Shown one piece after another: positions 1,385 through 32,261 of a DNA stretch of 64,000 nt. The stretch covers positions 7,089-71,088 of the IMG/VR virus record IMGVR_UViG_3300026680_000001; one strand, given 5' to 3'. This DNA is from a virus. The notes beneath the pieces were generated by a model. That model was given only the letters and a program-made list of their open reading frames with translations, was not told where the DNA came from and did not search any database. The stretch's first letter is position 1; every line of letters begins with the position of its first letter. A program made the position numbers and the translations under genes.

Positions 1385-1386
1385 CA

Positions 1387-2737: not shown

Positions 2738-2743
2738 CCGGCC

Positions 2744-6023: not shown

Positions 6024-6026
6024 GCT

Positions 6027-7100: not shown

Positions 7101-7103
7101 GGT

Positions 7104-7343: not shown

Positions 7344-7378
7344 GATGGCCAGTTTCGAGGACATACCGGAGGCGTAAC

Positions 7379-8719: not shown

Positions 8720-9174
8720 GAATGACGACAACCTGGACACCCGATGAGTTCGCGGCGATACTCAAGACCAGGATGCTGGAACAGCACAAGATACGTGGCG
8801 GCCATACCATATCCCGAAGGATGGTCGAGCGAGCCGAGTTTGATACCGTTGAACTGGTTGCGAACCAACTCCACGTCGATTTGCATACTTACGTGTACGC
8901 AGAACAAGCCGCGACCAATGTCGATGAGTTGGTCCTTGACGGCGGGCCGGCCACGTGGTGGCAGCACATAAAGCAGGCGTTCTTCCCGTACGGTGACGAT
9001 CCCGTGGGACGTTGGTTGCTTCGGCGTTGGCCGGTTCGACGCCACCAGATCCGGGTCCCGGTCACGGCTACGCGCTGGGCGGTGTACCCGGACATCGAAG
9101 GGTACCGAGCGTTGCCGGACTGCGGACCCGTGGTCTTCCATGACTACGTTGAGTTTGATCGGCAGGGACAATGA
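8716..9174 (+). CDS. hypothetical protein
   Basis: 152 aa; start overlaps upstream stop. Confidence 0.4.
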   Translation: MRMTTTWTPDEFAAILKTRMLEQHKIRGGHTISRRMVERAEFDTVELVANQLHVDLHTYVYAEQAATNVDELVLDGGPATWWQHIKQAFFPYGDDPVGRWLLRRWPVRRHQIRVPVTATRWAVYPDIEGYRALPDCGPVVFHDYVEFDRQGQ

Positions 9175-9402
9175 ATGAATGAATGGGTTCTCTGGGGGTT
9201 CCACCCCAGATACGCCGACGGCGAACCAATCAAGATAACCGGCGGTGGTATCCGTCGTTGCCGAACAGAGCAACGCTGGCGTATCGACTGCGAGGGTGGT
9301 TGGACCTGTGCGATTCACCGAGCGGGTACGTCGCCGGTCGGATTGCGTATTCAAGCGACGGCCGCACGTACCTATCGTGCCTTGTTGTACATGAGCCCAT
9401 AG
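9175..9402 (+). CDS. small hypothetical Cys-containing protein
   Basis: ATG immediately after upstream TGA (ATGAATG); ends 14 nt before next predicted start. Confidence 0.3.
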   Translation: MNEWVLWGFHPRYADGEPIKITGGGIRRCRTEQRWRIDCEGGWTCAIHRAGTSPVGLRIQATAARTYRALLYMSP

Positions 9403-9416
9403 CGGGGGTTATTACA

Positions 9417-10295
9417 ATGGCCTCGTCCGGACGTGGTGCGTACCCGCTCTGGTCACCACGCCGCCGGCCGCAGCTGGTCGAGCCGTCGATCTTCGCGCCG
9501 GCACAGTCACGGGTGTTGGCCGACCACGTCATCGGGCCCATTCCCACCTTGCGTGCCGAGCCGTGCCGCGGGGCCGTGCTGCTGCGCCTGACCTGGCCGC
9601 AGGTCCGGACGGCACACCTGATTCGGCTGGAACCGGATGGAACGCAGACCACCGTCTCCGCCACCGAGGGGGTCATGGTCTGTGGTACTTGGGTCGGCCT
9701 GGACCACGAGGTTCCTTTAGATCAGGCATGTGTCTGGCGGGCCACGTCGCCCGAGTCACAGGAGGTTCTGACGACCCCGGAGGCCATTGGCGTTCCGTCC
9801 GGGGGCCGTGCCTGGTTGCGTCACCTGAGCCGACCGGGGTTGAGCCGACCGATCCGGGTGGCCATCCGGCCAACCCAGCGCAGGGCCGCTCGACGGGGGA
9901 TCTATTACTTGGCTGGGAGGCCGGACCCGATGGTCGTGACCGATCTCCGGGCCGGTGACGAGGGGTCGATGGGGATCTATGTCGAATCGGACATCGAGAG
10001 CGTAGCCATACGGGCATTGCTCGCTGACGGGTCCGTCCTGCTCCTGTCTTGTCCGGCCGCGTGGACCGGACCCCGCCAGTTGTACATCAGTCCCGGGGAC
10101 GTGGACCTCACCCCGGCCGCCCGGGTGGTCACCGAGGCGGGCGAATATATGACCCTGCCGTATGTGGTGGTGCAACGCCCTGACCTACCGGCGGTGTCCA
10201 CTCCCGGCGCCACCTGGGCCGATGTATCCCGGCTGGGTTCGTGGGACGAGCTGGCCGGGCGACCCTGGGACGACCTACTCGTCCCAGGATGGTGA
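9417..10295 (+). CDS. putative minor tail protein
   Basis: ATG 9417 with GGGGG RBS 8 nt upstream; long ORF in tail operon. Confidence 0.4.
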   Translation: MASSGRGAYPLWSPRRRPQLVEPSIFAPAQSRVLADHVIGPIPTLRAEPCRGAVLLRLTWPQVRTAHLIRLEPDGTQTTVSATEGVMVCGTWVGLDHEVPLDQACVWRATSPESQEVLTTPEAIGVPSGGRAWLRHLSRPGLSRPIRVAIRPTQRRAARRGIYYLAGRPDPMVVTDLRAGDEGSMGIYVESDIESVAIRALLADGSVLLLSCPAAWTGPRQLYISPGDVDLTPAARVVTEAGEYMTLPYVVVQRPDLPAVSTPGATWADVSRLGSWDELAGRPWDDLLVPGW

Positions 10296-16092: not shown

Positions 16093-17739
16093 TCACAGGT
16101 CACCCCGGGAAAAGTCCGCGATCAGTGACGGGACCGTGGCATCCATACCGGCGATGTCGAGCATCCCGGCGTCGGACGGGTCCGCGATGCTGAACTCAGT
16201 GGCCGTCATCCCGACGACTGCGAGCCGGGCGTCGATCCCGGAAGCGTCCCGGTACTGGGCCAGTGCCTCGTGTGGGTGTATGGCTCCTGCCCAGGTCTCG
16301 TTGTCCGTGTAGATCACAAAGGTGTCAATTTCCAGATTGCGTTTCATGGCATAGATCATCGGCAGGGCACAGTCCGTGCCACCGAACGGCAGGCTGGACA
16401 CCGCACCCACGGCGTCGTCCAGCCGCTGTCGTGGGCTGATCGAGAGTGGGGTCAGTGTTGGACTCCCGCCACCCCACAGCCCACCGCAGTAACCACTGTC
16501 CGCACGGGTAAACCCCAAGATCACGTGCCGGGACTCGGTTGCCGCCGTGACCAGTGCCAGCGCCGCGCTGGCCTCCCGGCACGTGATCGGCATACCGCTG
16601 ATCTGTTGTCCCATGGACCCGGACACGTCCAGCGCCAGCAACATCCGCTCCCCGGATGGTTCCACGGCCCCGAACGATGCATAGAACGCCTCGTCCAGCG
16701 CGTCGACGATGATCCGCGACGGAGTCCAGCTGGTCGCGCCTCGTGCGCTATGCCCAGAGGCGTAGGTCCGCTGCGCCAACAGTACGGAGATCGGATGCAC
16801 GCGCGCCTGACGCAGCCGCTCCGGACTGGTCAATTGCACGGCTACCGCCGTGGCACGGTGCCCAAACGGGTCGAGCAGACCCAGCCTGGTCAGCCGGGGC
16901 AGTTGCCGTATCAGCGCGGTCTGCGGCATGTCGGCGTCTAACAACGCCTCCCACACCACCGGCTCGGCCAGTGCCGAGTCTGGAAGCATCTCCCAGGACA
17001 AGCCAACCCCATCAGTGATCATTCGGGCCACTTCGCGAGGTGAAGCGGTCTGGGCGCGGGTGAACGCCTCAACCAGGTAGAGACCATTCGATGACGTGAA
17101 GTTGCCACACGGCTCACAGATCCAGCTGAACAGCTCGTCTCGTGCCTCGGAGTCGGGTACGGGATGGGCGAGCCGGAGCAGGTCCCGGTGCGTCCAACCC
17201 TCCCGGTTCCGGTACTTGACCACCTGGTATTCCAGGTCATGGACAGACTTGTTCAGGTACCAGTTCGATACCGCTCGACGCATTCCCCGACCCCAGCCAC
17301 GGAACTGCTCGACGTACCTGACGAACGTGAACAGGTGCGTTCCGGTGCGGGCCACGGCAGGCAACGCCACCAGTGCGGCCCTGCGACCGTGGTTGTCGCC
17401 GAGTGAGGCCACAGCCGCGAGCGCGAACAGTGCCGGTCCCTGGCGTGGTGCCCGGCCAGCGATGGATATCTCCACGATCGCACGAACCAGGTCGAGAGGC
17501 CGGTCGCGGGCCATGTCGAGTACGATGCCCGCGTTGTCCTTGGCCAGTTCACTGGCCCCGACGTAGTACGTGCCGCCATCCACGCCGAGGGTCAGGAAGC
17601 GTTGTAGCCGTGCGTCGTCGGTGATTCCGAAGGTGAACCCGCCGGCACTGTTCTTGACCTGGTCAGGGTGGGCCGGTTCGTTCTGTGGGGTCGTGAGGTT
17701 CCGAGTCCGGATCGCTACCAGTGGGTCCGTCTTGGTCAT
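16093..17739 (-). CDS. rsr: Ro60/Rsr ortholog (TROVE domain + C-terminal vWA domain)
   Basis: 549 aa from ATG 17739 (AAGGAG RBS); N-terminal TROVE-like region; C-terminal vWA with MIDAS motif DVSGSM; size and architecture match bacterial Rsr. Confidence 0.75.
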   Translation of the reverse strand: MTKTDPLVAIRTRNLTTPQNEPAHPDQVKNSAGGFTFGITDDARLQRFLTLGVDGGTYYVGASELAKDNAGIVLDMARDRPLDLVRAIVEISIAGRAPRQGPALFALAAVASLGDNHGRRAALVALPAVARTGTHLFTFVRYVEQFRGWGRGMRRAVSNWYLNKSVHDLEYQVVKYRNREGWTHRDLLRLAHPVPDSEARDELFSWICEPCGNFTSSNGLYLVEAFTRAQTASPREVARMITDGVGLSWEMLPDSALAEPVVWEALLDADMPQTALIRQLPRLTRLGLLDPFGHRATAVAVQLTSPERLRQARVHPISVLLAQRTYASGHSARGATSWTPSRIIVDALDEAFYASFGAVEPSGERMLLALDVSGSMGQQISGMPITCREASAALALVTAATESRHVILGFTRADSGYCGGLWGGGSPTLTPLSISPRQRLDDAVGAVSSLPFGGTDCALPMIYAMKRNLEIDTFVIYTDNETWAGAIHPHEALAQYRDASGIDARLAVVGMTATEFSIADPSDAGMLDIAGMDATVPSLIADFSRGDL

Positions 17740-17956
17740 GCAAATCTCCTTCCGGCCCGTTACCGGGCAATGGAAAGACCCCCACGGTCCGGGCGAGAAA
17801 TTCAAGACTGGCCATGGGGGTGGGTAGCCAGTCCTCCGGACCGTGGGGGTCCGTCTGTGGCCTACGGGCAAGTTGGTGGCATCCGGGGATCACCATTCGC
17901 AGAGGTAACCGAACACCGTCCAGCCCGTAGGTCGTGCGGGGCAACAACGATGGAGT

Positions 17957-18093
17957 GAGGCGGACGGGCAAGGTGTGCGTGCCGGGTTTCAGCGCTCTGC
18001 CAGCTGAGCTACACGGTCAATGCCGTGACGGGACTCGAACCCGCGACCTCTCCATTACAAGTGGTAACCGACTCGCTTCGGCCCGTCCGCCTC
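17957..18093 (-). ncRNA. Y-RNA-like (YrlA-like) RNA: 13-bp terminal stem enclosing a circularly permuted tRNA-like domain
   Basis: Perfect inverted repeat GAGGCGGACGGGC (17957-17969) / GCCCGTCCGCCTC (18081-18093); on minus strand T-arm GCGGG-TTCGAGT-CCCGT, then acceptor-like hairpin CACGG-cattga-CCGTG, then D-arm GCTC-AGCTGGCA-GAGC; 218 bp upstream of rsr, same strand. Confidence 0.5.
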
Positions 18094-20925: not shown

Positions 20926-21323
20926 CAGGGAGGTCAACTATGCGAGATCACGACATGGAGGAGCCATCCGAACCACCCGGACGTGACCAAATGAACCGCC
21001 ATCCGGAGATTCACCGATTCCTCGTCACAGCGGATACCAACCGCAAGATACACCACTGGTCAGCAACCGCAACGTTCGTCAACTGGATCGAGGGCCGTGA
21101 CAACGGTGACCGCGAGACATGGCTAGTGACATGTTACGAGCCGCAAGTCAAGTCATTCCTCAATACTGCTAAAACCATCGGTGTCACCGTACAGAAGATC
21201 CATGACGCTGGTGACAGGGAGACGTACGAGTTGCTGGTCGGTAATCCCGGGACCGGATGGCCACCATGTATACGACCCGCACACTTTGACTACCAGCCAG
21301 GTAGCGCATCGAGTCAGAATTAA
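20922..21323 (+). CDS. hypothetical protein
   Basis: 133-aa ORF overlapping FtsK stop (ATGA). Confidence 0.35.
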   Translation: MTGRSTMRDHDMEEPSEPPGRDQMNRHPEIHRFLVTADTNRKIHHWSATATFVNWIEGRDNGDRETWLVTCYEPQVKSFLNTAKTIGVTVQKIHDAGDRETYELLVGNPGTGWPPCIRPAHFDYQPGSASSQN

Positions 21324-21344
21324 GGAAAGTCGGGGTAGGCCACG

Positions 21345-21779
21345 ATGATGTTTCAGGGTCGGGTTCACACTACGGGTAGCGACGACATATTCGACGACGA
21401 GGCATTTAGCGGCCAGATCGGCAAAAATGTCCCACTCACCGTCGGTGGGCAACACGTTGGCTACGTCACGATCGTTGCAGCCGAGGTTGTGGACGGTGGC
21501 CGGGCAGTGCTACTGACCTACACAGCCCCCGGCACTGACCGGTGCGGGAGTCAACCGTCCTCGAATTCCAGTGCCCGTTGTGAGCGGCCGAGTGGCCACA
21601 CATCCAATAACTGTGTCGGCCGGACCCGTGGAGGCTACTGGAAGTCGTGGACGACGCCAGACCCCTCCCTGAACGATGGTGGCACGACCCCCACGGGTAC
21701 CTCGCTACGGATGTGCGGGACGCACTGTCTAGGCTCGACCAACGGGAGTAGTGGCTGGTTATGCGAGATAGCGAGATAG
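21345..21779 (+). CDS. hypothetical protein; 3' half looks degenerate (possible pseudogene/frameshift remnant)
   Basis: N-terminal 65 aa protein-like; remainder Ser/Arg/Gly-rich low-complexity; alternative frame carries duplicated FtsK C-terminus. Confidence 0.2.
   Translation: MMFQGRVHTTGSDDIFDDEAFSGQIGKNVPLTVGGQHVGYVTIVAAEVVDGGRAVLLTYTAPGTDRCGSQPSSNSSARCERPSGHTSNNCVGRTRGGYWKSWTTPDPSLNDGGTTPTGTSLRMCGTHCLGSTNGSSGWLCEIAR
21695..21737. repeat. copy 2 of FtsK 3'-end repeat, in an otherwise non-coding-looking frame
   Basis: See copy 1; lies about 780 bp downstream. Confidence 0.7.
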
Positions 21780-22096
21780 CGCAAGAGTTCCCGTCCGCTG
21801 AGGCGTGGGAGCACTTCGGGGGTGGGAGGCACCGTGCCAGGATCTTACTAGATCCCTGGACGGAAAAACGGTGCTGGCTGCTCGTGGTCGAGCACGAGTA
21901 CCAATATGTAGCTGAACAGGTCAGTGACCTATCCACGACACCCATCAACACATCTGAAACTGAACTGTGGGAGTACCTGTTCCAGCGCCTAGAACAGCTC
22001 ATCAGGCATGGCACGACCCCCGGCACCGACCCGGCACCGAGTGTGCCACGGCACAGCACGTGCCGGCCTGGTGCCGGGGGTGGGTCAGCACCATGA
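21761..22096 (+). CDS. hypothetical protein
   Basis: 111-aa ORF; stop overlaps next start (ATGATG). Confidence 0.35.
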   Translation: MRDSEIAQEFPSAEAWEHFGGGRHRARILLDPWTEKRCWLLVVEHEYQYVAEQVSDLSTTPINTSETELWEYLFQRLEQLIRHGTTPGTDPAPSVPRHSTCRPGAGGGSAP

Positions 22097-22911
22097 TGGG
22101 CCGGACCCACGCCGTGTCAGGGATCTTGTCCGGGGAGTTGACACTGCTCATGGCCAAGTACGTCCCGGTGGTCTCGCCGGTCCCGTTCGAGGTCGCCGTC
22201 CTGTTCGTCCTCGTCATAACAGGCGCCACGCTGCTCCCGGATCTGGATCAACCATCATCTGTCGCGGCCCGGTCCCTGGGACCGGTGACGCGGTGGATGG
22301 CACGCGGGATCGGGGCCGGGTCCGTGTCCCTGTACCACCTGACCCGGGGACCGGGGGACAACCCGGGACGCGAGGGGGGACACCGGCTGGTGACGCATAC
22401 CCCCATCGGCTGTGTCGCCTTTGGTGCCGTCGCCCTCGTGGCCCAGGCGTCCCCGGTGACGGCATGCGTGTCCCTGGGGCTACTTGTCGCACTCGGGTTC
22501 CGGGCCGTCACCGGGGGACGGGGTGATACCGCCGACGCCATCCGTCGCGTCACCCGCACCCTGGGAGTGACGACGTTCGTCGCCCTCGTGGCGGGGACGG
22601 GGTTGGCCTGGTACGTCGTCACTCGTCACCCCGACGCGTCCCTTGTTTGGGGGTTCGCCGTGGTCATTGGCTGTTGGGCACACCGGGAAGGGGACAGGTG
22701 GACGATCGGGGGCGTCCCTCGTGCGACGTGCCCGGTTCGGGTGGGGACGCGGTCCTGGGGACGCACCCGTCCCCTGGGGGACATCAGGACGGGTGGAGCG
22801 GAGGAAGCAGGGGCCGTCCTGCCTGTCCTGTTCATCGCCATCATCGTCGTCACCCTGTCCCTGGTTGGTGTCCTGGGTGACATCGTCACTCTCGTGATGG
22901 GGACACTATGA
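22093..22911 (+). CDS. membrane-bound metal-dependent hydrolase (DUF457/YdjM-like)
   Basis: MMGRTHAVSG start, LLPDLD and GHRLVTHTPIG motifs, multiple TM helices. Confidence 0.55.
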   Translation: MMGRTHAVSGILSGELTLLMAKYVPVVSPVPFEVAVLFVLVITGATLLPDLDQPSSVAARSLGPVTRWMARGIGAGSVSLYHLTRGPGDNPGREGGHRLVTHTPIGCVAFGAVALVAQASPVTACVSLGLLVALGFRAVTGGRGDTADAIRRVTRTLGVTTFVALVAGTGLAWYVVTRHPDASLVWGFAVVIGCWAHREGDRWTIGGVPRATCPVRVGTRSWGRTRPLGDIRTGGAEEAGAVLPVLFIAIIVVTLSLVGVLGDIVTLVMGTL

Positions 22912-23453
22912 GCCGGGTGGGGGAGGGACGGGCGACGTTCCGCGACGCTGCCGCCGAGACGTTGGTGCGACGGAGACGCCGCGGGGACGCCAAGCGTCGC
23001 AAGGTGCGACAGGTGGGACGCCCACGTCCCCGCCACCGTCCCCGACGACGGGGTCACCGCCGACGTGCCAGACCCCGCGGGCTGGTCTTCGGTCTGGTCA
23101 CGATCATTGTCTCGTTGCTCGTCGCGGTCTTGGCCCTGGCCGGCTATCTGGTCACGTGGCTTGCCGTACTAGTCGCCGCTGGGGTGAGCGGGACTGTGGC
23201 GGTGTTCGAGGTGCAACGTGAGTTGCGCGGTGGACCGGCCGCCTACCGGGGGCCGGTGAAGATCTCTGAGCCTCGCCGGCACACGGGACGCAAACGGAGA
23301 TCAACGGGCGGTGTGGAAGGTTCCGGGGGTCCGCGTGCCACCCGCCGCCGAACCTGCTCGGCGCGTTGCCAAACCTCCACCCGGCCAGTGTCGGAATGTG
23401 ACTGCTCATGCGGGGGTTCATCGCACGGCCGGACCACCCGCGAGCGCGTGTAA
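22908..23453 (+). CDS. basic membrane protein
   Basis: Arg-rich N-terminus, two TM helices; ATGA overlap with upstream gene. Confidence 0.4.
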   Translation: MSRVGEGRATFRDAAAETLVRRRRRGDAKRRKVRQVGRPRPRHRPRRRGHRRRARPRGLVFGLVTIIVSLLVAVLALAGYLVTWLAVLVAAGVSGTVAVFEVQRELRGGPAAYRGPVKISEPRRHTGRKRRSTGGVEGSGGPRATRRRTCSARCQTSTRPVSECDCSCGGSSHGRTTRERV

Positions 23454-23468
23454 CCACCACCGAACCGA

Positions 23469-23495
23469 CCCCACGCAAAGAATCTTTGCGTGGGG
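23469..23495 (+). terminator. intrinsic-terminator-like hairpin CCCCACGCAAAGA / TCTTTGCGTGGGG followed by T-rich tract
   Basis: 13-nt perfect arms, 16 nt after stop at 23453, followed by TCTTGACTTGTT. Confidence 0.55.
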
Positions 23496-23497
23496 TC

Positions 23498-23526
23498 TTG
23501 ACTTGTTCCCACCCAGGGGTTAGATT
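23498..23526 (+). promoter_or_regulatory. sigma70/HrdB-type promoter TTGACT-17-TAGATT
   Basis: -35 TTGACT (23498-23503), 17-nt spacer, -10 TAGATT (23521-23526); drives a roughly 370-nt leader before the 23903 gene. Confidence 0.5.
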
Positions 23527-23902
23527 ATATGTAGAAGCAAGAACGAAGATTGAAAACTTCAAAGCGGGAGCCCCACCCGGGTGAGACCACAGGGCCGCGA
23601 CGATCGGACACACAATGTCCAGGAGCGGAAGCCGGAGACGCGGACGGGGGACAACGAACGAAACAAAAGCATTCCACTATCGGCGCTGGAAAAGCCGAGA
23701 GCCCGGCAGGAACCGGGTGACGCATGGGCACGTGCGTCGGTGAGGTTCGAGACCCACTGGTGGAGCACATGGCAGCCATCCCCCGGGGAAAGCCCCGGCG
23801 AGGCAGGGAGACGTGGCCTAGCGAGCCACTACAGGCGCGGTGCGAGTCCGCTGGTTGCCACCCATCCGACACCCCCACATACCAACCCCTGAAGGGTTCA
23901 CA

Positions 23903-24421
23903 ATGACCAAGGTCAAGACCGTCAAGATGGTCGTGCTCGTATACCTCCTCGGAGCCCTGGCTGGCTCGTTCTGCCACATCATCGAAACCGCCCACAAGAT
24001 CGGCCTAGTCGGTCTGGAAGCCTGGACCGTTCCATTCATGATCGACGGCATCGTCGTGATCGCCATGGTCATGCGGTCGGCCAGCTTCGGGCGGTCCACC
24101 CAGCGGATCGGGTTCCGGACGCTACTGCTGTCCGGTGGCCTGTCCCTGACCGCCAACGTCTACGCCGCGGAGACCCTCGGTGGCGTCCTGTTCGGCGTCG
24201 GGATCGTCGTGCTGTACGTGTACGCCGACTGGCTGTCCAGCCGGCTGGAGAGCGCTGAGGCCGAGCGTGCCCGTGAGGCCGCCGAGGCCCGGACGGCCAA
24301 GCGCCGCGAGGCCGCTCGCAAGGGCGCGGCCACCCGCAGGACACGGGCTCGCAGTGCGAAGATCCGGAAGACCCGCGAGGCCAAGGTCTTGGACGAGTTG
24401 GTCCACGGCCACACGGCCTAA
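23903..24421 (+). CDS. DUF2637-like membrane protein with Arg/Ala/Glu-rich C-terminal tail
   Basis: ATG 23903 with GAAGGG RBS; 4 TM helices (HIIETAHKIGLVGLEAWTVPFMIDG...); family resemblance to actinomycete plasmid/ICE-associated DUF2637. Confidence 0.45.
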   Translation: MTKVKTVKMVVLVYLLGALAGSFCHIIETAHKIGLVGLEAWTVPFMIDGIVVIAMVMRSASFGRSTQRIGFRTLLLSGGLSLTANVYAAETLGGVLFGVGIVVLYVYADWLSSRLESAEAERAREAAEARTAKRREAARKGAATRRTRARSAKIRKTREAKVLDELVHGHTA

Positions 24422-24429
24422 TCATGAAG

Positions 24430-24479
24430 CCCGGCCCCCGCGAGGGGACGCGACGTTGGGGATCAGATCCCCGGCCGGG
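24430..24479 (+). repeat. structured element copy 1 (closing stem CCCGGC/GCCGGG; hairpin CCCC-GCGA-GGGG; linker ACGCGACGTT; hairpin GGGGA-TCAGA-TCCCC)
   Basis: Begins 9 nt after stop of 23903 gene; one of three paralogous copies with compensatory changes. Confidence 0.6.
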
Positions 24480-24748
24480 TACGCGGAGAGAGTGAGGAAC
24501 GGGGTACGACCGGGCCGCGGGAGGGTCTGGATCGTCTCGCGCAGGGGGGACTGCCCCCGGACCACCCCCGATAAACCCCGACCATTACTGGATAGGATCA
24601 ACAGGACATAGCTAACTATTTTTTCGTGATGACGGTACAAGGTCCAGTCCACAGTGTGCCGGGTGCACGTTGGACCAGTACAGTATCCGGGACAGTTCAA
24701 GCAACGGGCCATACCCGCACCTCGGTATACAACAATATACTTGGCCAG

Positions 24749-24777
24749 ATCACTGCACAGGCTCGCACTGATAGAAT
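24749..24777 (+). promoter_or_regulatory. candidate extended -10 promoter (TGaTAGAAT) in low-GC gap upstream of repeat-protein gene
   Basis: TG at 24769-70, TAGAAT 24772-24777; weak -35 ATCACT 17 nt upstream; region about 50% GC. Confidence 0.3.
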
Positions 24778-24916
24778 GTGTGGTCCCGACGAGCAACTAG
24801 ATGTGATGTTCTGGTCACTGGAACTGGACGAGCTGACCTAACCTAACGCAGCCTGGAGCTCCATATGACCAATGAAGTTGAGGACTGATCATTACCAAAT
24901 TGGAGTTTTCTGACTC

Positions 24917-25495
24917 ATGAGCACGTCAACGTACTTGACTGTCGAGATGTTAACCAAGGCAAGCGCCTGCGCCAACCAAGTGAGCCGCTTCCACCAGAAA
25001 TACCCGGCGGGTGTCGACATCACTATTGACCTATGCCGTGACAGTTCCGCGGACTGGGACTGGGACTGGGCAGCAAAACAACTACTGCCGCAGTCCGCGT
25101 GGGCTGGATACGAGCGGGTCAAGCAGCCGGCTTGGGCCGAGTACGCGCGGGTCGAGCAGTCGGCTTGGGCCGAGTACGCGCGGGTCCGGCAGCCCTCGCG
25201 AGCCAAGTACGAACGGGTCTGGCGGTCCGCGCGGGCCGAGTACGCGCGGGTCGAGCAGTCGGCTTGGGCCGAGTACGCGCGGGCCGAGTACGCGCGGGCC
25301 GAGTACGAGCAGGCCCGGCAGTCTGCGTCGGCCGAGTATGAGCGGGTCTGGCAGCCCGCGCGGGCCGAGTACGAGCGGGTCCGGCAGTCCGCGCGGGCCG
25401 AGTACGAGCGGGTCCGGCAGTCCGCGCGGGCCGAGTACGAGCAAGCATGTGCCGTAGCGTTCGCAAATGCTGTCTTGGCGTATGGCCTACGCTGA
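24917..25495 (+). CDS. tandem-repeat protein (11-aa AEYARV(E/R)QSAW repeats)
   Basis: 192 aa; GGAG RBS 9 nt upstream; about 10 copies of an 11-residue helical repeat. Confidence 0.5.
   Translation: MSTSTYLTVEMLTKASACANQVSRFHQKYPAGVDITIDLCRDSSADWDWDWAAKQLLPQSAWAGYERVKQPAWAEYARVEQSAWAEYARVRQPSRAKYERVWRSARAEYARVEQSAWAEYARAEYARAEYEQARQSASAEYERVWQPARAEYERVRQSARAEYERVRQSARAEYEQACAVAFANAVLAYGLR
25094..25446. repeat. 33-bp tandem repeat array (about 10 units of GCTTGGGCCGAGTACGCGCGGGTCGAGCAGTCG), coding
   Basis: Visible periodicity of 33 bp with unit variants including truncated 24-bp units. Confidence 0.85.
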
Positions 25496-25505
25496 CCGAC
25501 GCCTG

Positions 25506-25556
25506 CCTGGTCCCCCCGCAAGGGATGTGACGTTGGGGGTCGAATCCCCGGCCGGG
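25506..25556 (+). repeat. structured element copy 2 (CCTGGT/GCCGGG closing stem with G-U pairs; CCC-GCAA-GGG; linker TGTGACGTT; GGGGG-TCGAA-TCCCC)
   Basis: Begins 11 nt after stop of repeat-protein gene. Confidence 0.6.
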
Positions 25557-25591
25557 TACTTCAACAACAAGAATCAACGATTGGAACCACG

Positions 25592-26866
25592 ATGACCAGT
25601 ACCACCATTCGCAATGCCACCATCCTCGACCTCAACGCACTACTTCTGGACCGGCAGGCTCGTAAGGTCGATGCCGTTGTTCCGGCCACGGCCATGTCAT
25701 TCCGTGACGGGGTGGCGCACTTGCGGGGCGTCGTGCCACTGCTCAACGATGACGGTGTCACCGATGTGAACGGCGACTACCGGCCCACCAACGTCGCCGA
25801 TGAGCACCTCGGTCAAAAGCTTGGCATTCCGGTGCCCTACCTGCGGAAGCTGCGTTCGGAGCGCCCCCACCTCTACGACGCCAACGTCAACGCCTGGCTG
25901 CACGGTCGCCGTGTTCGTCGTGATGGCGAGGTCGAGACCGTTCACCCGGCCGATGACAGGTCCTTCCTGTTGCGCATGTTCCGTGCCGACGCTGGTGAGG
26001 GTGTCCTGCGCGGGGTGTTGTCCACCGGTTACGGCCTCATCGACGACTTCGATGTCCTGACCGCCACCCTGGAGGGGGTGCGGGAATCCGGTGCCGAGGT
26101 CAGCATCGACAGCTGTGACCTCACCGAACGCACGATGCGGGTCCGGCTTGTCGCGCCCGGTGTCGCAGCACTGGCACCCGTGCTGTTGACCGACTACCGG
26201 TCGCCGTTCACGTCTGGTGGGGCCAAGCGAGCCGGTAGTGGTAATGGTCTTGACCTCGACACCCACACCAACCGGTGGCGTGCCCTGGCTGAGCGTGAGG
26301 GTACGTCATACCCACCTGGACAGGAACCCGTCGTGTTCGCCGGGTTTGAGATCAGTAACAGCGAGCTTGGTGCTGGTGCGTTCACCCTGACTCCACGACT
26401 GGTCGTGAAGATCTGTCGCAATGGGCTCACCGTCACCGCCGACGCACTTCGTCGCGTCCACCTCGGTAGCAAGCTCGACGATGGTGTTGTGGCCTGGTCG
26501 GACAACACCCGGAACAAGTACCTGGAATTGATCAAGTCGAAGGCCACCGATGCCGTCCGGACCTTCCTGTCACCCGGATACGTGACCAGCAAGGTCACCG
26601 AGATCGAGCGAAAGGCCGGTGCCCGACTGCCCGAGCCGGAGAAGCAGGTCAAGATCCTCGGTAAGCGGCTCGGGTTGTCAAAGGAACGAACTGAACAGGT
26701 TCTCGCGCATTTCATCATGGGTGGCAGCCTGACCGCTGGCGGGTTCCTCAACGCGGTCACGTCAGTCGCGCAGGTATGCGAAGACGGTGACGAGGCCGCC
26801 GATCTTGAAGGACGTGGTCTCGACGCGCTCGACGCGGCAACCGCGCTGGCACACGCTACCAGGTAG
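25592..26866 (+). CDS. DUF932-like phage/plasmid-associated protein
   Basis: 424 aa; segments YLRKLRSERPHLYDANVNAWLHG and FAGFEISNSELGAGAF resemble the DUF932 family; assignment from memory of family features. Confidence 0.45.
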   Translation: MTSTTIRNATILDLNALLLDRQARKVDAVVPATAMSFRDGVAHLRGVVPLLNDDGVTDVNGDYRPTNVADEHLGQKLGIPVPYLRKLRSERPHLYDANVNAWLHGRRVRRDGEVETVHPADDRSFLLRMFRADAGEGVLRGVLSTGYGLIDDFDVLTATLEGVRESGAEVSIDSCDLTERTMRVRLVAPGVAALAPVLLTDYRSPFTSGGAKRAGSGNGLDLDTHTNRWRALAEREGTSYPPGQEPVVFAGFEISNSELGAGAFTLTPRLVVKICRNGLTVTADALRRVHLGSKLDDGVVAWSDNTRNKYLELIKSKATDAVRTFLSPGYVTSKVTEIERKAGARLPEPEKQVKILGKRLGLSKERTEQVLAHFIMGGSLTAGGFLNAVTSVAQVCEDGDEAADLEGRGLDALDAATALAHATR

Positions 26867-26873
26867 CAACAAA

Positions 26874-26921
26874 GCCCGGTCCCGTGAGGGACGTGACGTT
26901 GGGGACCGAATCCTCGACCGG
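26874..26921 (+). repeat. structured element copy 3 (CCCGGT/ACCGGG closing stem; CCC-GTGA-GGG; linker CGTGACGTT; GGGGA-CCGAA-TCCTC)
   Basis: Begins 8 nt after stop of DUF932-like gene. Confidence 0.6.
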
Positions 26922-26964
26922 GCACTTCCAACGAAATGACCATTACTTGAGTGGAGCCAGACCT

Positions 26965-27111
26965 ATGGCCGACTGCCCGAACCATGACAGCGGGAATCAC
27001 GACGACAATGGGGACCAGGAGCAACGGGGGGACAAGCTGTTCACGAAATGCACCTGCGGCGCCACTGTCTCCGTCGACGACGTGACCATCGACTACGACG
27101 ACCAGGCTTAA
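26965..27111 (+). CDS. small acidic Cys/His-containing protein
   Basis: ATG 26965 with GGAG RBS 8 nt upstream; 48 aa. Confidence 0.3.
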   Translation: MADCPNHDSGNHDDNGDQEQRGDKLFTKCTCGATVSVDDVTIDYDDQA

Positions 27112-27194
27112 CATGAAAGGAGCGTGGGGGTTCGCGAACTTCAACGTCGACCGGATCGTCAGATTGGCGGCTGATACCGACGCGCTCAGGAGCG

Positions 27195-27725
27195 GTGGCG
27201 AGGTCAATGACACATGACTGGCGACAGCAAATCACCGAACTGGCGCGGCAACTAGCCGAGTTCGCGCGAACGAAAGATCCCGCGGCACGCGTCGCCCAGG
27301 CACCGGGCCTTACCCTTGACTGCCAGGCCGTGCTGGCCCAGGCCAGGGCCGCGAGCCTGGCTGAGCTGGTCGACCGGGGGATGACCCTAGCCCAGGCCGC
27401 CGAGACAGCAGGCCTCACCCCCGAACGTGCCGACCAACTGATCCGCCGACTGTTCATCGCTTACGGTGGGGCTGGTCGCCGGATCTCTCCCGAGGTCCGG
27501 GGTGACCTGCTCGACCTGTTCGAGCGGGCTGGCGTGCTCGACCCCGATGGCCGGGACCGGGTGGCCACGGCATTGCTCGGCCGTCCGGTCGAGAGCGCCG
27601 TTACCACGATCTCATTGGATGAAGGCCGACTTCTTCGTGACCGGCTACGGGCCATGTCCGCAAGCAACGACTACGCAATAGTGGTCGCGGAACTTATCAA
27701 ACAAGGGAAGGATCAGACATCATGA
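27195..27725 (+). CDS. putative HTH DNA-binding protein
   Basis: GMTLAQAAETAGLTPERADQLIRR helix-turn-helix-like segment; stop overlaps next start. Confidence 0.4.
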   Translation: MARSMTHDWRQQITELARQLAEFARTKDPAARVAQAPGLTLDCQAVLAQARAASLAELVDRGMTLAQAAETAGLTPERADQLIRRLFIAYGGAGRRISPEVRGDLLDLFERAGVLDPDGRDRVATALLGRPVESAVTTISLDEGRLLRDRLRAMSASNDYAIVVAELIKQGKDQTS

Positions 27726-28183
27726 CACACGCAACCACTACGGCACCGGTAGAGTCCCAGTACGAGGAGAGATTCGTCAGGGTCATCGTCGCCTCGTTCG
27801 GATTCCTTCATGGCCCGCCGCCTGAGGGCCAACACCTGGTCGTCGACGTACGCACAATACTGTGTGACCCACACGTCGACCCCAGGATGCGGGAACTGAC
27901 CGGGCTCAATCTCATCGTTCGGCGACATGTACTGAACACACCCGGTGCGTCAACGCTGGTCGCCAACCTAGTCCCCGTGGTCCTCGGGATCGCAGCCATT
28001 ATCAGCACGCCCAGCCCACAATGGGAGGTTACGAAAATCGCCATCGGGTGCGCGGGTGGTCGCCACCGGTCTGTCGTCCTAGCGAACGAACTCACACAGC
28101 GGCTGATCGACGGTGGCATCGGTGCCGAGGTCAGTCATCGAGATATCCAGCAGCCCGTCATCGACCGTGTGACCGAAGAGTAA
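27722..28183 (+). CDS. RapZ C-terminal-domain-like protein
   Basis: SFGFLHGPPP, VVDVRTILCDPH, RELTGLN segments resemble RapZ C-terminal RNA-binding domain motifs (SFGFKYG / DVRFLPNPH / LTG). Confidence 0.45.
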   Translation: MTHATTTAPVESQYEERFVRVIVASFGFLHGPPPEGQHLVVDVRTILCDPHVDPRMRELTGLNLIVRRHVLNTPGASTLVANLVPVVLGIAAIISTPSPQWEVTKIAIGCAGGRHRSVVLANELTQRLIDGGIGAEVSHRDIQQPVIDRVTEE

Positions 28184-28185
28184 CC

Positions 28186-28872
28186 ATGAACGGACCAACG
28201 CTGGCCGAGCGTGAGAAGGCACTGTTCGAGGACCTGGACATGTTGGCGCAGGCCCTCGACCCGGACAACTGTGAACGGCTCGCCGAGTGCCTGCGCCGAG
28301 CACGACATGACGATATGGGCAACGTGATCCGCCGCTGGCGTGAGGCGCAGGGTCTAACCACTCAACGACGCTCTATGAAGCCCGGACCTTATTGCAACCG
28401 GCACTGCCGATGCTTCGTCCCCGGTGGGCGGGCAGCACACCTAGTCGTGATCGACATAGATGGTATCGCGGACCGGGCAGCGCTGTGTGGAGCGCGAGCC
28501 CAGCTTGGGCGAGTCACCGAGGCTGAACGACGCTTCGTCGCTACGCTCCCGATCTGCCAGGAATGCGAACACCGACACTGGATGGTCCATCGGGACGGTG
28601 TCCAGTCCGCGAGGCCTCGGGGGGCCGAGGAGTGTGGTCACCACGGCCGGCGCTACACCCATGGCGGGCGGGTCGCTCATTTACTCGACGTGCACTCCTA
28701 CACGTTCTCGGCCACCGCGCTGTGCGGTCAGGACACGGGCATGCTCAGCATATCCGGGTGGCTCGGGACCGGCTCGCAGCGGGAGTACGAGCGAGCCGAG
28801 GCATTACCACTGTGCCGCGCCTGCGAACGTCGACATGTCCGTGAGCACCCACTACCGGAGATGGCCGGCTGA
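28186..28872 (+). CDS. Cys/His-rich putative zinc-binding protein
   Basis: ATG 28186 just after upstream stop; PICQECEHRH and PLCRACERRH repeats. Confidence 0.4.
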   Translation: MNGPTLAEREKALFEDLDMLAQALDPDNCERLAECLRRARHDDMGNVIRRWREAQGLTTQRRSMKPGPYCNRHCRCFVPGGRAAHLVVIDIDGIADRAALCGARAQLGRVTEAERRFVATLPICQECEHRHWMVHRDGVQSARPRGAEECGHHGRRYTHGGRVAHLLDVHSYTFSATALCGQDTGMLSISGWLGTGSQREYERAEALPLCRACERRHVREHPLPEMAG

Positions 28873-29111
28873 TGCCTGTGCTCGCCGTTTCAATCCATGC
28901 GGCACGCTGGGACCTCGTCGACGCGATGCGTGCCGCGGGTGTGGACACCGCGCTACTCGATGCATACGACGAGGTCCGTGCCCATGAAGATGACGTGGAC
29001 AGCATGATTGAGGCCGCCTGCGAGCGAGGTTACGAGGAGGGGTTCGCAGCTGGTGAAAGGGCCGCCAAAGCGGCCATGCGCAAGAAAGCGAAAACAGGAG
29101 TCAAACCATGA
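28872..29111 (+). CDS. hypothetical protein
   Basis: 79-aa ORF, overlapping stop/start on both sides. Confidence 0.35.
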   Translation: MPVLAVSIHAARWDLVDAMRAAGVDTALLDAYDEVRAHEDDVDSMIEAACERGYEEGFAAGERAAKAAMRKKAKTGVKP

Positions 29112-29494
29112 CGAATCAGCACGACAGCAAGGAGCTAGTCAACCTTGACCAGCTCGACGGCGTCCGTGATCTTTGCGTCGGGGTGGTCGCCAGTGCGCCG
29201 TTCTGGCATTACGGACTCAGTACACAGCACGTGGACGTGAGCCGGGAGACCATCCAGCTCCGGACCGCTTCCTATGGTAGGTCCTACCCAGCACAGGAAG
29301 TTCGGGAGCGGGTCTGTGAAATGATCCGCCTGACGGTCGTCGAGCTGGACGTTGTGATCAAAGAGCTGACCCGTCACCGTGACCGACTGATCGACCAAGT
29401 CCTGAAACAGGGTCAGCGCGAGGACTGGGTCACCCACGATCCCACACTCGGACCTGACGATCGCCCGACCTGTCGTCGGAAGATTGACTCATGA
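29108..29494 (+). CDS. hypothetical protein
   Basis: 128-aa ORF with overlapping stop/start coupling. Confidence 0.35.
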   Translation: MTNQHDSKELVNLDQLDGVRDLCVGVVASAPFWHYGLSTQHVDVSRETIQLRTASYGRSYPAQEVRERVCEMIRLTVVELDVVIKELTRHRDRLIDQVLKQGQREDWVTHDPTLGPDDRPTCRRKIDS

Positions 29495-30234
29495 ACATAT
29501 GCTACCGGGTGATGATCGTACTGGTCACCACCTTCGCTTGGGTGATCCCCGGCTGCAACGCGGGCCAGTACACCTCCGAACCGGTCCCGACCCCCGGCGA
29601 CCAGCAGGTCACCACCGTTCCGCCCTACGCGGTACCAGCCGGGACCTTGCCGCGTGACGACGCATTATCTGCGCTCAACGGCCTGGTGATCGCCCCGGAG
29701 GGAACTCAGGCTGGCTATGACCGGGATTGCGGGTCTGGCCATGCCTGTTCGTTCGGCCCGGCATGGTCCGACGATGTGCGGGTGGCCGGCGGGCATAACG
29801 GGTGCCGGACCCGCGATGACATCCTGCGCCGGGACCTGACCGACGTGCGATCACCCGATGGGTGTGTGGTCACGGCGGGGGAGCTGCTGGACCCCTACAC
29901 TGGGCAGACCATCGCCTACCAGCGCGGCGAGTCGGACGTGGACATCGACCACGTGGTAGCCCTGGCACAGGCGTGGCGCTCGGGTGCGGCCGGATGGGAC
30001 CCGGACCAGCGCCGGGACCTGGCCAACGACCCCCGTAACCTGCTCGCCGTCGAGGCCGGCGTCAACCGGAGCAAGGGCGACGACGACGCCGGCCAATGGT
30101 TGCCGCCCAACGCGGAGTACCGCTGTACTTATGCGCTGATCGTCACCACGGTCAAGGCCCTGTACAGGTTGACCGTGGACGCCCAAGAAATGTCGATGCT
30201 AAGGAGTGAGGTGGAGACGTGTCCAAGAGGTTAA
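29491..30234 (+). CDS. secreted lipoprotein with DUF1524/HNH-like nuclease domain
   Basis: N-terminal signal plus lipobox-like VIPGC; DIDHVVALAQAW...NLLAVEAGVNRSKGD motif typical of DUF1524 (GmrSD C-terminal-like) nucleases. Confidence 0.55.
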   Translation: MNICYRVMIVLVTTFAWVIPGCNAGQYTSEPVPTPGDQQVTTVPPYAVPAGTLPRDDALSALNGLVIAPEGTQAGYDRDCGSGHACSFGPAWSDDVRVAGGHNGCRTRDDILRRDLTDVRSPDGCVVTAGELLDPYTGQTIAYQRGESDVDIDHVVALAQAWRSGAAGWDPDQRRDLANDPRNLLAVEAGVNRSKGDDDAGQWLPPNAEYRCTYALIVTTVKALYRLTVDAQEMSMLRSEVETCPRG

Positions 30235-30581
30235 TCGATGACCAGGGAAGGCTCACGGACGAAGGCCGTCGACGATGGGAAACGCCACGTGAACAACCAC
30301 CGCCGACCCCGAGTAGCGGGCCGTGCATCCAAGACCTCGTGATCGAGGACATCCGCGAGCGGACCCGGCTGGGTATCGAACGGTACGGGACGGTGCTCCG
30401 GCCACACAATGGCCGGGACGCACTCCGTGATGCGTATGAGGAGGCCATGGACCTAGTGATCTACCTCCGCCAGGTCATCGCCGAGTTCGGCGACACCGAG
30501 GGGCTCCAGGTCCGGCTCCGTGGCTGGTGCGAACACTGCGGTCAGGAGTCCACACCGGCCCCGGTGATGGACAATGGCTGA
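30219..30581 (+). CDS. hypothetical protein
   Basis: 120-aa ORF overlapping previous gene end. Confidence 0.35.
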   Translation: MSKRLIDDQGRLTDEGRRRWETPREQPPPTPSSGPCIQDLVIEDIRERTRLGIERYGTVLRPHNGRDALRDAYEEAMDLVIYLRQVIAEFGDTEGLQVRLRGWCEHCGQESTPAPVMDNG

Positions 30582-30704
30582 GCGGCTGTTTCACACCATG
30601 GAAGCCAGCGCAATATTCACCCTCACCGTTGTCCATGGCACCGTCGAAGGTGACCGGTACTGGTACTTCGGATCGCTGAACGCACAAAGGGCGGTGACAA
30701 AGTA

Positions 30705-31415
30705 ATGCAATACCTGGGTGGTAAGGCCAGGGCGGGACTTTGGGTGGCCAAAGCACTACTTGCGGACACCCCGAGACGGAGTACGTACCTGGAACCATTT
30801 GTCGGGGCTGGTTGGGTTTTGTGGCGGGTCGCCCCTGGTTTCCGGCGCGTGGAGGCAGGTGACTACCATCAGGACCTTTGTCTGCTCTGGGATGCCATTC
30901 TGAACGGATGGGAGCCACCTCAGGAGGTCACACGAGCAGAATACACGCAACTCCGCGACGCCGAACCAAGCGCCCTTCGGGCCTTCGCTGGTTTCGGCCT
31001 GTCCTTTGGGGGCAAGTGGTTCGGTGGATACGCAAGCAATGATCGTGGTGACGACTACTGTAGGGCGGCCCGCAGAGGACTGCTCCGTAAGGCAACCGGC
31101 ATGGTCGGGGTAAAAGTTGAGCACCGTGATTACCGATCATGGTCACCAGGTTCGGACCACCTTGTCTACTGCGATCCGCCCTACCAAGGCACTACGCAGT
31201 ACCGAGGGGGCAATGTTGATGGATTTGACCACGACGAGTTCTGGGACGTGATGACCCGGTGGTCCACTTCAGGCGCTCAAGTGTACGTGTCCGAGTACAC
31301 AGCTCCTACGAACCTCGCGGAGGTGGTCTGGGAACAACCTGTAAAGGGGTCGCTGGAGCGACGGTCCAACAACCGGACTGTGATAGAACGCTTGTACCGG
31401 GTCACGTCGCACTAA
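30705..31415 (+). CDS. Dam-family N6-adenine DNA methyltransferase (D12 class)
   Basis: Motif I YLEPFVGAGWVLW and motif IV DPPY (VYCDPPYQG) in alpha-class order. Confidence 0.8.
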   Translation: MQYLGGKARAGLWVAKALLADTPRRSTYLEPFVGAGWVLWRVAPGFRRVEAGDYHQDLCLLWDAILNGWEPPQEVTRAEYTQLRDAEPSALRAFAGFGLSFGGKWFGGYASNDRGDDYCRAARRGLLRKATGMVGVKVEHRDYRSWSPGSDHLVYCDPPYQGTTQYRGGNVDGFDHDEFWDVMTRWSTSGAQVYVSEYTAPTNLAEVVWEQPVKGSLERRSNNRTVIERLYRVTSH

Positions 31416-31460
31416 GGAAACCCTTACCTTGCACCCCCGTCTTCCGTGTCCTGGAAATAG

Positions 31461-32261
31461 TCATAGCCCCTTAGACGCCAACCACTCGCGAGCCGCAGCC
31501 GCAAACAGCACATCCGGCGAGTCTGCCGGTTCTGGGGCGGGACGGTTCCACGGCGTGAACACGGTCACGTCACCGTCCTGCCCTAGCAACTGACCGTAGT
31601 CGTCCCAGCTCATCCAGAACCGGCCACCCACACCCCAACCTGGCCCCCACGAGTTCGAGAACCAAATACGCGAGTTCTCCACGTCCAGCTCGTCAGCCAC
31701 ATACTCGTGGCCACCGGCGATGTTCCCCGTTGGGGACACCCGACCACTCACGTCGGGTTCGAACATTGCCGTGTACCAGTACGTCCCGGTGATGAAGGGA
31801 GTAACGGTCAACGCCGCGAACGCGGCAGCCGTGCTGAATGTGTGTTGGTAGCCAGCGATTTCCCCGGACGACCTGAGCACCTTGGCAATCGTCAACCCAT
31901 CGGAGCCGGTGTCGGTGGGTGGGTACTCGCCGGGATAGGGGTCGATCTGTGTGGCATCACCATAGAGCCGTACCGCTCCGGCCTTGTCAAGTGAGTACCA
32001 GTGGTTGCCTCGCAACCACTCCCGGTAGAACCCACCCGTGGCAAGGCAGCCGATGCCGGCCGAGCCGGTGCAACTCCCCAGGCTACGGCCCGTGGTGGGG
32101 TCGACCTGATCAAACACGGGCACATGTCGTTCATGACGGATGGAGACCAGCGTCAACCCCTCGGTGGGGAACTCGTAGCGCCGGGACCGGTCGTCGTGGT
32201 TGATGTGCCGGCCGAGTCGTGGGTCGGTGGCAACGATGCGTTCACGGGTGATCAACGTCAC
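31461..32261 (-). CDS. papain-like (C1 family) cysteine peptidase-like protein
   Basis: GSCTGSAG candidate catalytic Cys; C-terminal GGHEYV...NSWGPGWGVGGRFWM matching the C1 His/Asn-Trp region. Confidence 0.55.
   Translation of the reverse strand: MTLITRERIVATDPRLGRHINHDDRSRRYEFPTEGLTLVSIRHERHVPVFDQVDPTTGRSLGSCTGSAGIGCLATGGFYREWLRGNHWYSLDKAGAVRLYGDATQIDPYPGEYPPTDTGSDGLTIAKVLRSSGEIAGYQHTFSTAAAFAALTVTPFITGTYWYTAMFEPDVSGRVSPTGNIAGGHEYVADELDVENSRIWFSNSWGPGWGVGGRFWMSWDDYGQLLGQDGDVTVFTPWNRPAPEPADSPDVLFAAAAREWLASKGL

Follow-up and report, generated by a model that had tools for sequence, protein, structure and literature searches.

It has been proposed that arrays of hammerhead ribozymes flanking single prophage genes divide long phage transcripts into mRNAs of one gene each (PMC3088659). 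In plant mitochondria, tRNA-like sequences known as t-elements direct the cleavage of mRNAs by RNase P and RNase Z (PMC1920247), and the same two enzymes cut the tRNA-like fold of MALAT1/mascRNA (PMC4919922). The Y RNA (YrlA) of Mycobacterium smegmatis, which has a 7-base-pair (bp) acceptor stem, is a substrate of RNase P (PMC4201824). Here we analyze a 64,000-nucleotide (nt) stretch of viral DNA, positions 7,089 to 71,088 of the IMG/VR record IMGVR_UViG_3300026680_000001 (hereafter the window), in which three copies of a branched, RNA-like element of about 50 nt lie just past the stop codons of consecutive genes.

The copies themselves, the pairing within them, the strand bias of their substitutions, their placement and the contents of the equivalent position in related phages are all directly seen. 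The most reasonable reading is that the elements are cis-acting structured RNAs on the coding strand, and they probably help to cut or stabilize multi-gene phage mRNAs. Our favored model, which we advance tentatively, is that they serve as intercistronic mRNA processing and stability signals by minimal tRNA mimicry, probably by way of RNase P or RNase Z.

Three copies of one branched element

Every copy begins with a 7-nt strand, GCCYGGY, followed after 0-3 spacer nucleotides by a 3-4-bp hairpin with a GNRA loop (GCGA, GCAA and GUGA in copies 1, 2 and 3, respectively). A 9-nt strand, A-Y-G-Y-G-A-C-G-U, leads into a 5-bp stem, UGGGG/CCYCG, with a 7-nt loop (AUCAGAU, GUCGAAU and ACCGAAU in the same order). 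With zero intervening bases a second 7-nt strand, RCCGGGY, then pairs with the first, and A-C follows; the tails read UACGCGG, UACUUCA and CACUUCC. An initial annotation of this DNA had recognized three paralogous copies with one architecture, and that description was borne out, with the addition of one 5' G in copies 1 and 2 and of the 3' A-C tail. The GNRA loops, the conserved linker (as A-Y-G-Y-GACGU-U) and the GGGG...CCYC hairpin that it reported are present, and the copies do lie just past the stop codons of consecutive genes, at distances that we count as 7, 9 and 7 nt (stops at 24419-24421, 25493-25495 and 26864-26866).

Mean column identity of the copies is 81% with flanks and 86-88% when trimmed. 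A covariance model built from the three copies (R1) scores them at 73-81.5 bits, against 15.7 bits for the next-best site in the window with filters off, so there are exactly three copies and their similarity is far above chance. The closing stem of copy 2 (ending at 25557) is followed after 34 nt by the ATG of the DUF932-like gene, and that of copy 3 (ending at 26923) after 41 nt by the next ATG (26965), with a GGAG ribosome-binding site ahead of it. Because the placement is the same and only 34-41 nt, ribosome-binding site included, separate the elements from the ATG, copies 2 and 3 are intercistronic elements and not promoter-terminator modules. Copy 1 is the end of the preceding operon.

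For the pairing analysis, the alignment was padded with N so that the helices line up, and in this alignment standard pairs fill 45 of the 45 base-pair cells of a three-way junction. Change on both sides was found at one pair only, 7-66 (C-G, U-G, U-A). The initial annotation had taken this closing-stem change as covariation arguing for function; the change itself is there, but it is the sole double-sided one, and it is removed by an alternative register with a 5-bp closing stem and a 7-bp hairpin 2, in which U48 pairs with R66 and which is 100% paired without any double-sided change. Since, in addition, the observed covariation was reached by 331 of 500 column shuffles and only three paralogs are available, the argument from covariation fails statistically.

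The folding energies of the copies are likewise not exceptional at this G+C content (z of -1.8, -0.3 and -2.5 for copies 1-3), and a sliding-window minimum free energy (MFE) scan of the window was not discriminating in DNA of 64% G+C. MFE folding does return the three-way junction for all copies on the + strand, whereas the - strand folds are poorer and inconsistent. The substitutions carry a similar strand signal. All 13 variable positions are transitions, and the five that fall in stems all keep pairing on the + strand, as G·U or Watson-Crick pairs, while the - strand would have A·C mismatches. Such a strand bias is estimated at about 1 in 32 (roughly p = 0.03), which is suggestive, though not proof, of an RNA structure made from the + strand.

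Searches for further family members were negative. Rfam 15 left the elements unmatched in the whole window at gathering score, and with the threshold relaxed to E <= 10, for 14 kb and for the 121 nt surrounding each of copies 1 and 2, it returned only a flavivirus 3' untranslated region repeat with an insignificant E of 1.8. A blastn search of copy 2 against 50,697 phage records gave no match, and at the protein level the surrounding 3.4-kb region has no more than distant echoes in phages and Streptomyces plasmids. A strict pattern of T-arm plus acceptor had 0 matches in viral and genome collections. A relaxed T-arm pattern had 34 metagenome matches and 1 viral match, and a pattern of hairpin 1 plus linker had 1 viral and 44 genome matches, none of them a homolog; we regard all as chance matches because none exceeded 23 bits when re-scored with R1. 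A covariance search of related phage loci, close to one of the checks proposed in the initial annotation, found no further copy when R1 was run on 2 + 70 viral loci with a DUF932-like gene, on the closest relative (locus L003) and on the loci of DUF2637-like homologs. Within the collections searched, then, the element appears specific to one phage lineage.

This restricted distribution fits a reading in which the copies are repeats without an RNA function of their own, either tRNA or tRNA-like pseudogenes in decay or repeats that recombination has spread, which would at most promote shuffling of the genes they flank. The patterns tried gave no homolog in viral, metagenome or genome collections, the closest relative is without the element, the loops that resemble T-loops are degenerate, and the gene content between such elements varies among relatives. 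We nevertheless consider it improbable, as all five stem substitutions preserve pairing, and on the coding strand only, the three nested helices are intact in every copy, the stop codons lie at a constant distance and every copy is oriented with the genes. Lying within 2.5 kb of one another and in one orientation, the copies also differ from dispersed repeats of the repetitive extragenic palindromic (REP) or miniature inverted-repeat transposable element type. A remnant of an attP site or tRNA 3' end was considered and rejected because each copy has its own 5' closing strand.

The initial annotation missed the tRNA-like geometry of the elements. The 7-bp closing stem is stacked directly on the 5-bp stem, which ends in a 7-nt T-like loop, and A-C follows in the place of the discriminator base and C74; one 3-4-bp GNRA hairpin stands instead of the D and anticodon arms. 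All three copies fit acceptor plus T-stem geometry, that is, a 12-bp stack with an unpaired discriminator (36 of 36 cells paired), and a geometry scanner picked up copies 1, 2 and 3. In copy 2 the loop departs from the canonical UUCGAAU in its first base alone, and against the canonical U54-U55-C56-R57-A58 the three loops keep C56, R57 and the last two bases but not U54, and copy 1 has G in place of A58. When 410 kb of phage loci were scanned for a T-loop, a 5-bp stem and a contiguous 7-bp closing stem, 15 cases were found versus 1.1 in shuffles, with copy 2 among the 15.

Contents of the equivalent position in related phages

The DUF932-like gene served as the anchor for comparing the locus with about 75 related phage loci. 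Its 424-amino-acid (aa) product has about 700 homologs, mostly on metagenomic phage contigs, and the closest, that of L003, shares 81% amino-acid identity with it. Coordinates of the RNAs found in these loci are given in Table 1.

Hammerhead ribozymes are one occupant of the position, which only a minority of the loci fill with anything other than a simple hairpin. Locus L094 (IMGVR_UViG_3300036805_000098) carries at least three hammerheads of type II, scoring 52-57 bits against a gathering score of 37, each with a stop codon 0-5 nt before it and the next ATG 17-48 nt after it. The last of them occupies the position of copy 2, immediately upstream of the DUF932-like gene, and a fourth is probably present in the same array (1-1455). 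Each of the L094 hammerheads is trailed by the same conserved CGGACAUAGGAGCCGAUCAUG leader. In L082 a hammerhead sits in the same place as copy 2, and L105 has a candidate with a complete core, not called by Rfam, that reads CGAAAC-GCC-GUGA-GGC-GUC...

It could be supposed from this placement that the elements are a new class of small self-cleaving ribozyme, standing in place of hammerheads at the intercistronic position of this lineage. The topology resembles that of type II hammerheads, in which a three-way junction has a short hairpin with a GNRA loop as its first arm and a junction strand that is conserved (the L105 candidate may be compared), and prophage hammerheads typically come in triple arrangements around single genes (PMC3088659). 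The hammerhead core (CUGANGA, GAAA, UH), judged by reading the sequence, is however absent in any permutation: mapping it by hand onto the element in all three permutations was tried and rejected, a regular-expression scan of the window for the core was negative, and neither a hammerhead model (clan CL00010) nor any other ribozyme family of Rfam 15 matched at E <= 10. Junction strands of 0-3, 9 and 0 nt would moreover leave little room for an active site, and essential nucleotides are not discernible from three paralogs. As the element has the position and topology of hammerheads, though without their core, we retain this reading at low weight and regard it as very unlikely. If true, it would mean that interchangeable RNA "scissors", namely hammerheads, tRNA mimics cut by RNase P and the present motif, operate between early actinophage genes.

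Other relatives carry tRNA-like RNAs. Those of L094 and L079 lack an anticodon and match the tRNA model at 42-50 bits; in L094 the anticodon arm is cut to 4 bp and a triloop and ACCA is encoded, and the second of the two in L079 lies 8 nt past a stop codon. Reduced junctions that combine a closing stem and a single hairpin with a canonical T-arm, missed by both ARAGORN and the Rfam tRNA model, were found in L042 (7 nt past a stop codon and 35 nt before an ATG), in L065 (9 nt past a stop codon, upstream of the DUF932-like gene) and in L119. Real tRNAs occur at the equivalent position in L097 and L110. From their sequences, the reduced tRNA-like RNAs of these relatives, most of them uncalled by ARAGORN and several unmatched by the Rfam tRNA model, look like an undescribed set of phage tRNA mimics.

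L109 has another reduced tRNA-like RNA with a canonical T-arm in an intergenic gap. The tRNA-Ser that ARAGORN calls in L097, directly after the hairpin of the DUF932-like gene, is without the long variable arm expected of tRNA-Ser and is unreported by Rfam at gathering score. In the phage of L048, which contains a DUF2637-like homolog, a recurring module separates many short early genes; it consists of a strong hairpin, TTGACA, a small C5...G5 hairpin within the promoter spacer and a TAnnCT -10 element, and a tRNA-Trp is found in the same stretch.

Since the position in relatives is filled by elements that define or protect RNA ends, we read the three elements as a form of mRNA punctuation. 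In this model they would be RNA structures acting in cis within the early-operon transcripts of an actinobacterial phage, each a three-way junction pared down to the part of a tRNA that tRNA-processing enzymes recognize. Cleavage at G1 would be the work of host RNase P, a cut after A73 might be made by RNase Z or a comparable enzyme, and the structure of the element would also protect the newly made RNA ends. The repeat protein and the DUF932-like protein would thereby each have a single-gene mRNA. By analogy, the hammerheads of related phages appear to do the same job at the same position. Transcription of the elements, their recognition by RNase P or RNase Z and their cleavage are steps that we infer. 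An mRNA-stability or processing site was among the roles suggested by the initial annotation, and it has gained comparative support from the hairpins, hammerheads, tRNA-like elements and tRNAs of the relatives.

Several observations weigh against tRNA mimicry. The elements are recognized neither by ARAGORN (0 genes in the window) nor by the tRNA model RF00005 (E <= 10, 121-nt stretches), and the relaxed and mitochondrial modes of ARAGORN gave noise only, with 23-85 calls in 2.8 kb. The T-like loops are non-canonical, U54 being replaced in all three and A58 lost to G in copy 1; the D arm is absent, hence there is no tRNA elbow, and CCA is not encoded. The 5 + 7-bp register fits the acceptor and T-stem geometry as well as 7 + 5 does, and because four of the five scanner matches with "GTC..." loops (besides copy 2) look like chance, the geometry alone is weak evidence. 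There are three paralogs only, with no ortholog found in viral, metagenome or genome collections. In L003 a plain hairpin of 16 bp, GCCCCGGTCGG...CCGACCGGGGCAC, with the outer stem and CAC tail of copy 3, stands exactly at the site of that copy, and the site of copy 2 is without structure. Nearly all of 69 viral loci have a strong simple hairpin 0-20 nt past the stop codon. Given the simple hairpins of L003 and of most of these 69 relatives, a generic hairpin function may suffice.

Hairpins can act as exonuclease barriers, and hairpins without a U-tract are common in actinobacteria and their phages. The elements may be no different in function from plain U-tract-less hairpins, acting as partial terminators, attenuators or 3' exonuclease barriers at cistron ends; the tRNA-like shape would then be incidental, and the branched shape perhaps a relic of insertion into the loop of an ordinary hairpin. 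Besides L003 and most of the 69 viral loci, in which the space before the next gene is too small for a promoter, a strong simple hairpin follows the DUF932-like gene in L041, L042, L044 and L001. The L097 hairpin, GCCCGGCCGC...GCGGCCGGGCAC, resembles copy 1, as the outer stem and tail in L003 resemble copy 3. The degenerate T-like loops, and the position of copy 1 at a real operon end before a 435-nt gap of promoter type, point in the same direction.

We take this explanation, in which only the closing hairpin would matter, as the main rival to tRNA mimicry, possible if on the whole rather unlikely. An intrinsic terminator consists of a G+C-rich hairpin and then a U-tract, whereas the stems of the elements lack a U-tract and a terminator scan of 21000-31500 gave 0 terminator-like sites. 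If copies 2 and 3 terminated transcription strongly, the genes after them would lack a promoter. The terminator role considered in the initial annotation is therefore hard to sustain in its efficient form at these two copies, as there is no U-tract and the 34 and 41 nt that follow, which include the ribosome-binding site, leave no room for a promoter. A plain hairpin also leaves unexplained why three copies have kept the single-stranded linker ACGYGACGU, the GNRA loops and the layout of the junction, and why ribozymes and T-arm junctions occupy the equivalent position in relatives; the same phage, moreover, has ordinary hairpins elsewhere, such as that at 23467-23497.

The phage and other features of the window

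The window derives from a phage of actinobacterial type, with a tape-measure protein carrying an SLT domain, a DUF5047 tail protein, a primase-PolA fusion and ThyX; its PolA is only about 39% identical to those of Streptomyces phages. The same phage was found in three samples (a 71-kb ENA contig, Logan and JGI), and the elements are identical in all of them. The sole difference in 21 kb is one 33-nt repeat unit fewer in the repeat gene of the ENA contig (181 versus 192 aa). The fusion is encoded by one long open reading frame; in the nearest Streptomyces phages, primase-helicase and DNA polymerase are annotated as two adjacent genes.

Of the gene labels given by the initial annotation, that of the repeat protein holds, and DUF2637-like stands barely over the Pfam cut-off (22.9 bits against 22.8). 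A Pfam search of the 424-aa protein did not call DUF932, and the label DUF932-like rests on the NCBI names of its homologs. The non-coding gap between copy 1 and the repeat gene probably contains the promoter for the operon that holds copies 2 and 3. A consensus promoter scan of the gap found no 9/12 match and Rfam was likewise without a match there; an extended -10-like TGATAGAAT near 24770 was seen by eye only, and the gap could instead hold a regulatory region or an unrecognized small RNA. Upstream, the hairpin GACCCCACGCAAAGA...TCTTTGCGTGGGGTC and the promoter-like sequence immediately after it form a classic terminator-promoter module, unlike the three branched elements.

The window also encodes a Ro60 homolog with a YrlA-like RNA and a second Y-RNA-like stem beside it. 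By sequence, this looks like an rsr plus two Y RNAs module, an arrangement described for mycobacteriophages. A stand-alone protein with a RapZ C-terminal domain, a domain that binds the small RNA GlmZ in bacteria, is encoded about 0.8 kb downstream of copy 3.

These genes raise the possibility that the elements are binding sites or decoys for a protein, whether the phage Ro60, the RapZ C-terminal-domain protein or a host tRNA-targeting defense or toxin that reads acceptor and T-arm helices. Ro60 with Y RNAs and the RapZ_C domain protein are encoded in the window, the linker and loops of the elements are conserved, and the shape mimics a tRNA without an anticodon. A role as Ro60 decoy had been suggested in the initial annotation; it finds no sequence support, and a Ro60 ligand was rejected, as the Ro-binding helix is absent and the Rfam YrlA and Y RNA models are unmatched at the elements. 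In the 14 kb scanned, the YrlA and Y-like (sbRNA) models match only 17861-18090 (-). A decoy would further require an excised stable RNA, and no orthologs were found in which co-occurrence with the candidate proteins could be compared. We hold binding or decoy function to be highly improbable.

Table 1. Positions of the elements, neighboring genes and other features in the window, and of RNAs in related phage loci
Locus	Feature	Position	Strand	Details
Window	Ro60 homolog	16093-17871	-	TROVE and Ro60 vWA domains
Window	Second Y-RNA-like stem	17861-17932	-	nematode sbRNA model, 34.6 bits
Window	YrlA-like RNA	17962-18085	-	directly upstream of Ro60 gene; 43 bits, E = 6.6e-7, under gathering score of 69
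Window	Ordinary 14-bp hairpin	23467-23497	+	right after gene ending at 23453
Window	Terminator-promoter module	23467-23526	+	hairpin, then promoter-like TTGACT-17-TAGATT
Window	DUF2637-like membrane protein gene	23903-24421	+	172 aa on source contig; last gene before copy 1
Window	Copy 1	24429-24482	+	77 bits in R1; closing stem GCCCGGC/GCCGGGU (7 bp); hairpin CCCC-GCGA-GGGG; linker ACGCGACGU; stem UGGGG/CCCCG, loop AUCAGAU; A-C
Window	Lower-G+C non-coding gap	24483-24916	+	435 nt; between copy 1 and repeat gene
Window	Repeat-protein gene	24917-25495	+	192 aa; between copies 1 and 2
Window	Tandem repeats in repeat gene	25090-25442	+	10.8 units of 33 nt; 11-aa repeats, e.g. AEYERVRQSAR
Window	Copy 2	25505-25559	+	81.5 bits in R1; closing stem GCCUGGU/GCCGGGU (7 bp, three G·U); spacer CCC; hairpin CCC-GCAA-GGG; linker AUGUGACGU; stem UGGGG/CCCCG, near-canonical T-loop GUCGAAU; A-C
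Window	DUF932-like gene	25592-26866	+	424 aa; between copies 2 and 3; matches PHROG 1362
Window	Copy 3	26874-26925	+	73 bits in R1; closing stem GCCCGGU/ACCGGGC (7 bp); hairpin CCC-GUGA-GGG; linker ACGUGACGU; stem UGGGG/CCUCG, loop ACCGAAU; A-C
Window	RapZ C-terminal domain protein gene	27722-28183	+	PF22740, E = 3.5e-27
Window	Primase-polymerase open reading frame	44795-48877	+	1360 aa; D5_N/DUF5906 primase-helicase region fused to family A DNA polymerase
L094	Hammerhead type II ribozymes	268-338, 533-599, 1385-1455
L094	Anticodon-less tRNA-like RNA	2759-2824
L082	Hammerhead	1377-1445		35.7 bits, E = 6.5e-4
L079	Anticodon-less tRNA-like RNAs	2800-2883, 3105-3188
L042	Reduced junction	3124-3191
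L065	Reduced junction	~1401-1455
L119	Reduced junction	1290-1346
L109	Reduced tRNA-like RNA	2780-2881
L097	tRNA-Ser (ARAGORN)	2673-2744		anticodon UGA
L048	Early genes with repeated module	5961-10258
L048	tRNA-Trp	9004-9077

Significance and likeness to known systems

If the punctuation model is true, some actinobacterial phages mark off their early polycistronic transcripts with interchangeable RNA modules, so that plain hairpins, hammerheads, anticodon-less tRNA-like RNAs and a minimal acceptor-T-arm junction are used at the same position of the same gene. The logic of mitochondrial tRNA punctuation would then extend to bacterial viruses, and actinobacterial RNase P and RNase Z would have in the elements a minimal substrate of natural origin. 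They would also offer a direct test of why ribozymes flank prophage genes, a question standing since 2011. The position next to the DUF932-like gene can itself be used as a search handle, as structured RNAs found there in other phages would be candidate processing signals or ribozymes.

The simplest comparison is with the "I-shaped" terminator or stabilizer hairpins of actinobacteria and with intercistronic stabilizers of REP type, which are likewise G+C-rich stems a few nucleotides past a stop codon and without a U-tract. Hairpins of exactly this kind occupy the orthologous positions in relatives, and some share the outer stem. The element of the window differs in that it branches, containing two internal hairpins and a conserved single strand of 9 nt, and in being repeated at 81-88% identity.

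The elements resemble mascRNA of MALAT1 in that a small tRNA-like module is placed at the 3' end of a longer RNA, and in mascRNA it is recognition by RNase P that creates the 3' end of the upstream RNA. That system is eukaryotic, however, with a full cloverleaf-like fold, and its upstream RNA is protected by a triple helix, which is unseen at the phage elements. The YrlA module (PMC4201824; RF02553) shares with the elements the presence of tRNA mimics in an actinobacterial phage that also encodes Ro60. In contrast to the elements, which share none of these traits, YrlA has permuted D- and T-arms, a Ro60-binding helix and a separate small RNA gene next to rsr.

The type II hammerhead arrays of prophages (PMC3088659; RF02276) match the elements in layout. 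In both, several paralogous three-way junctions of about 50-70 nt lie in one orientation, right after a stop codon and shortly before a start codon, around individual accessory genes. The elements of the window differ in having no catalytic core and in being unmatched by the Rfam hammerhead models.

The t-elements of plant mitochondria (PMC1920247) keep the T-arm motif GGTTCRANYCC and usually a cloverleaf, whereas the phage copies have degenerate T-loops and neither D nor anticodon arm, and they belong to an uncultured bacterial virus. The two are alike in being non-canonical tRNA-like folds beside coding regions, with a T-arm and an acceptor-like stem. They are alike also in their position at sites where the 5' or 3' ends of mRNAs form, or would form in the phage, and in that simple stem-loops can substitute for them at other genes.

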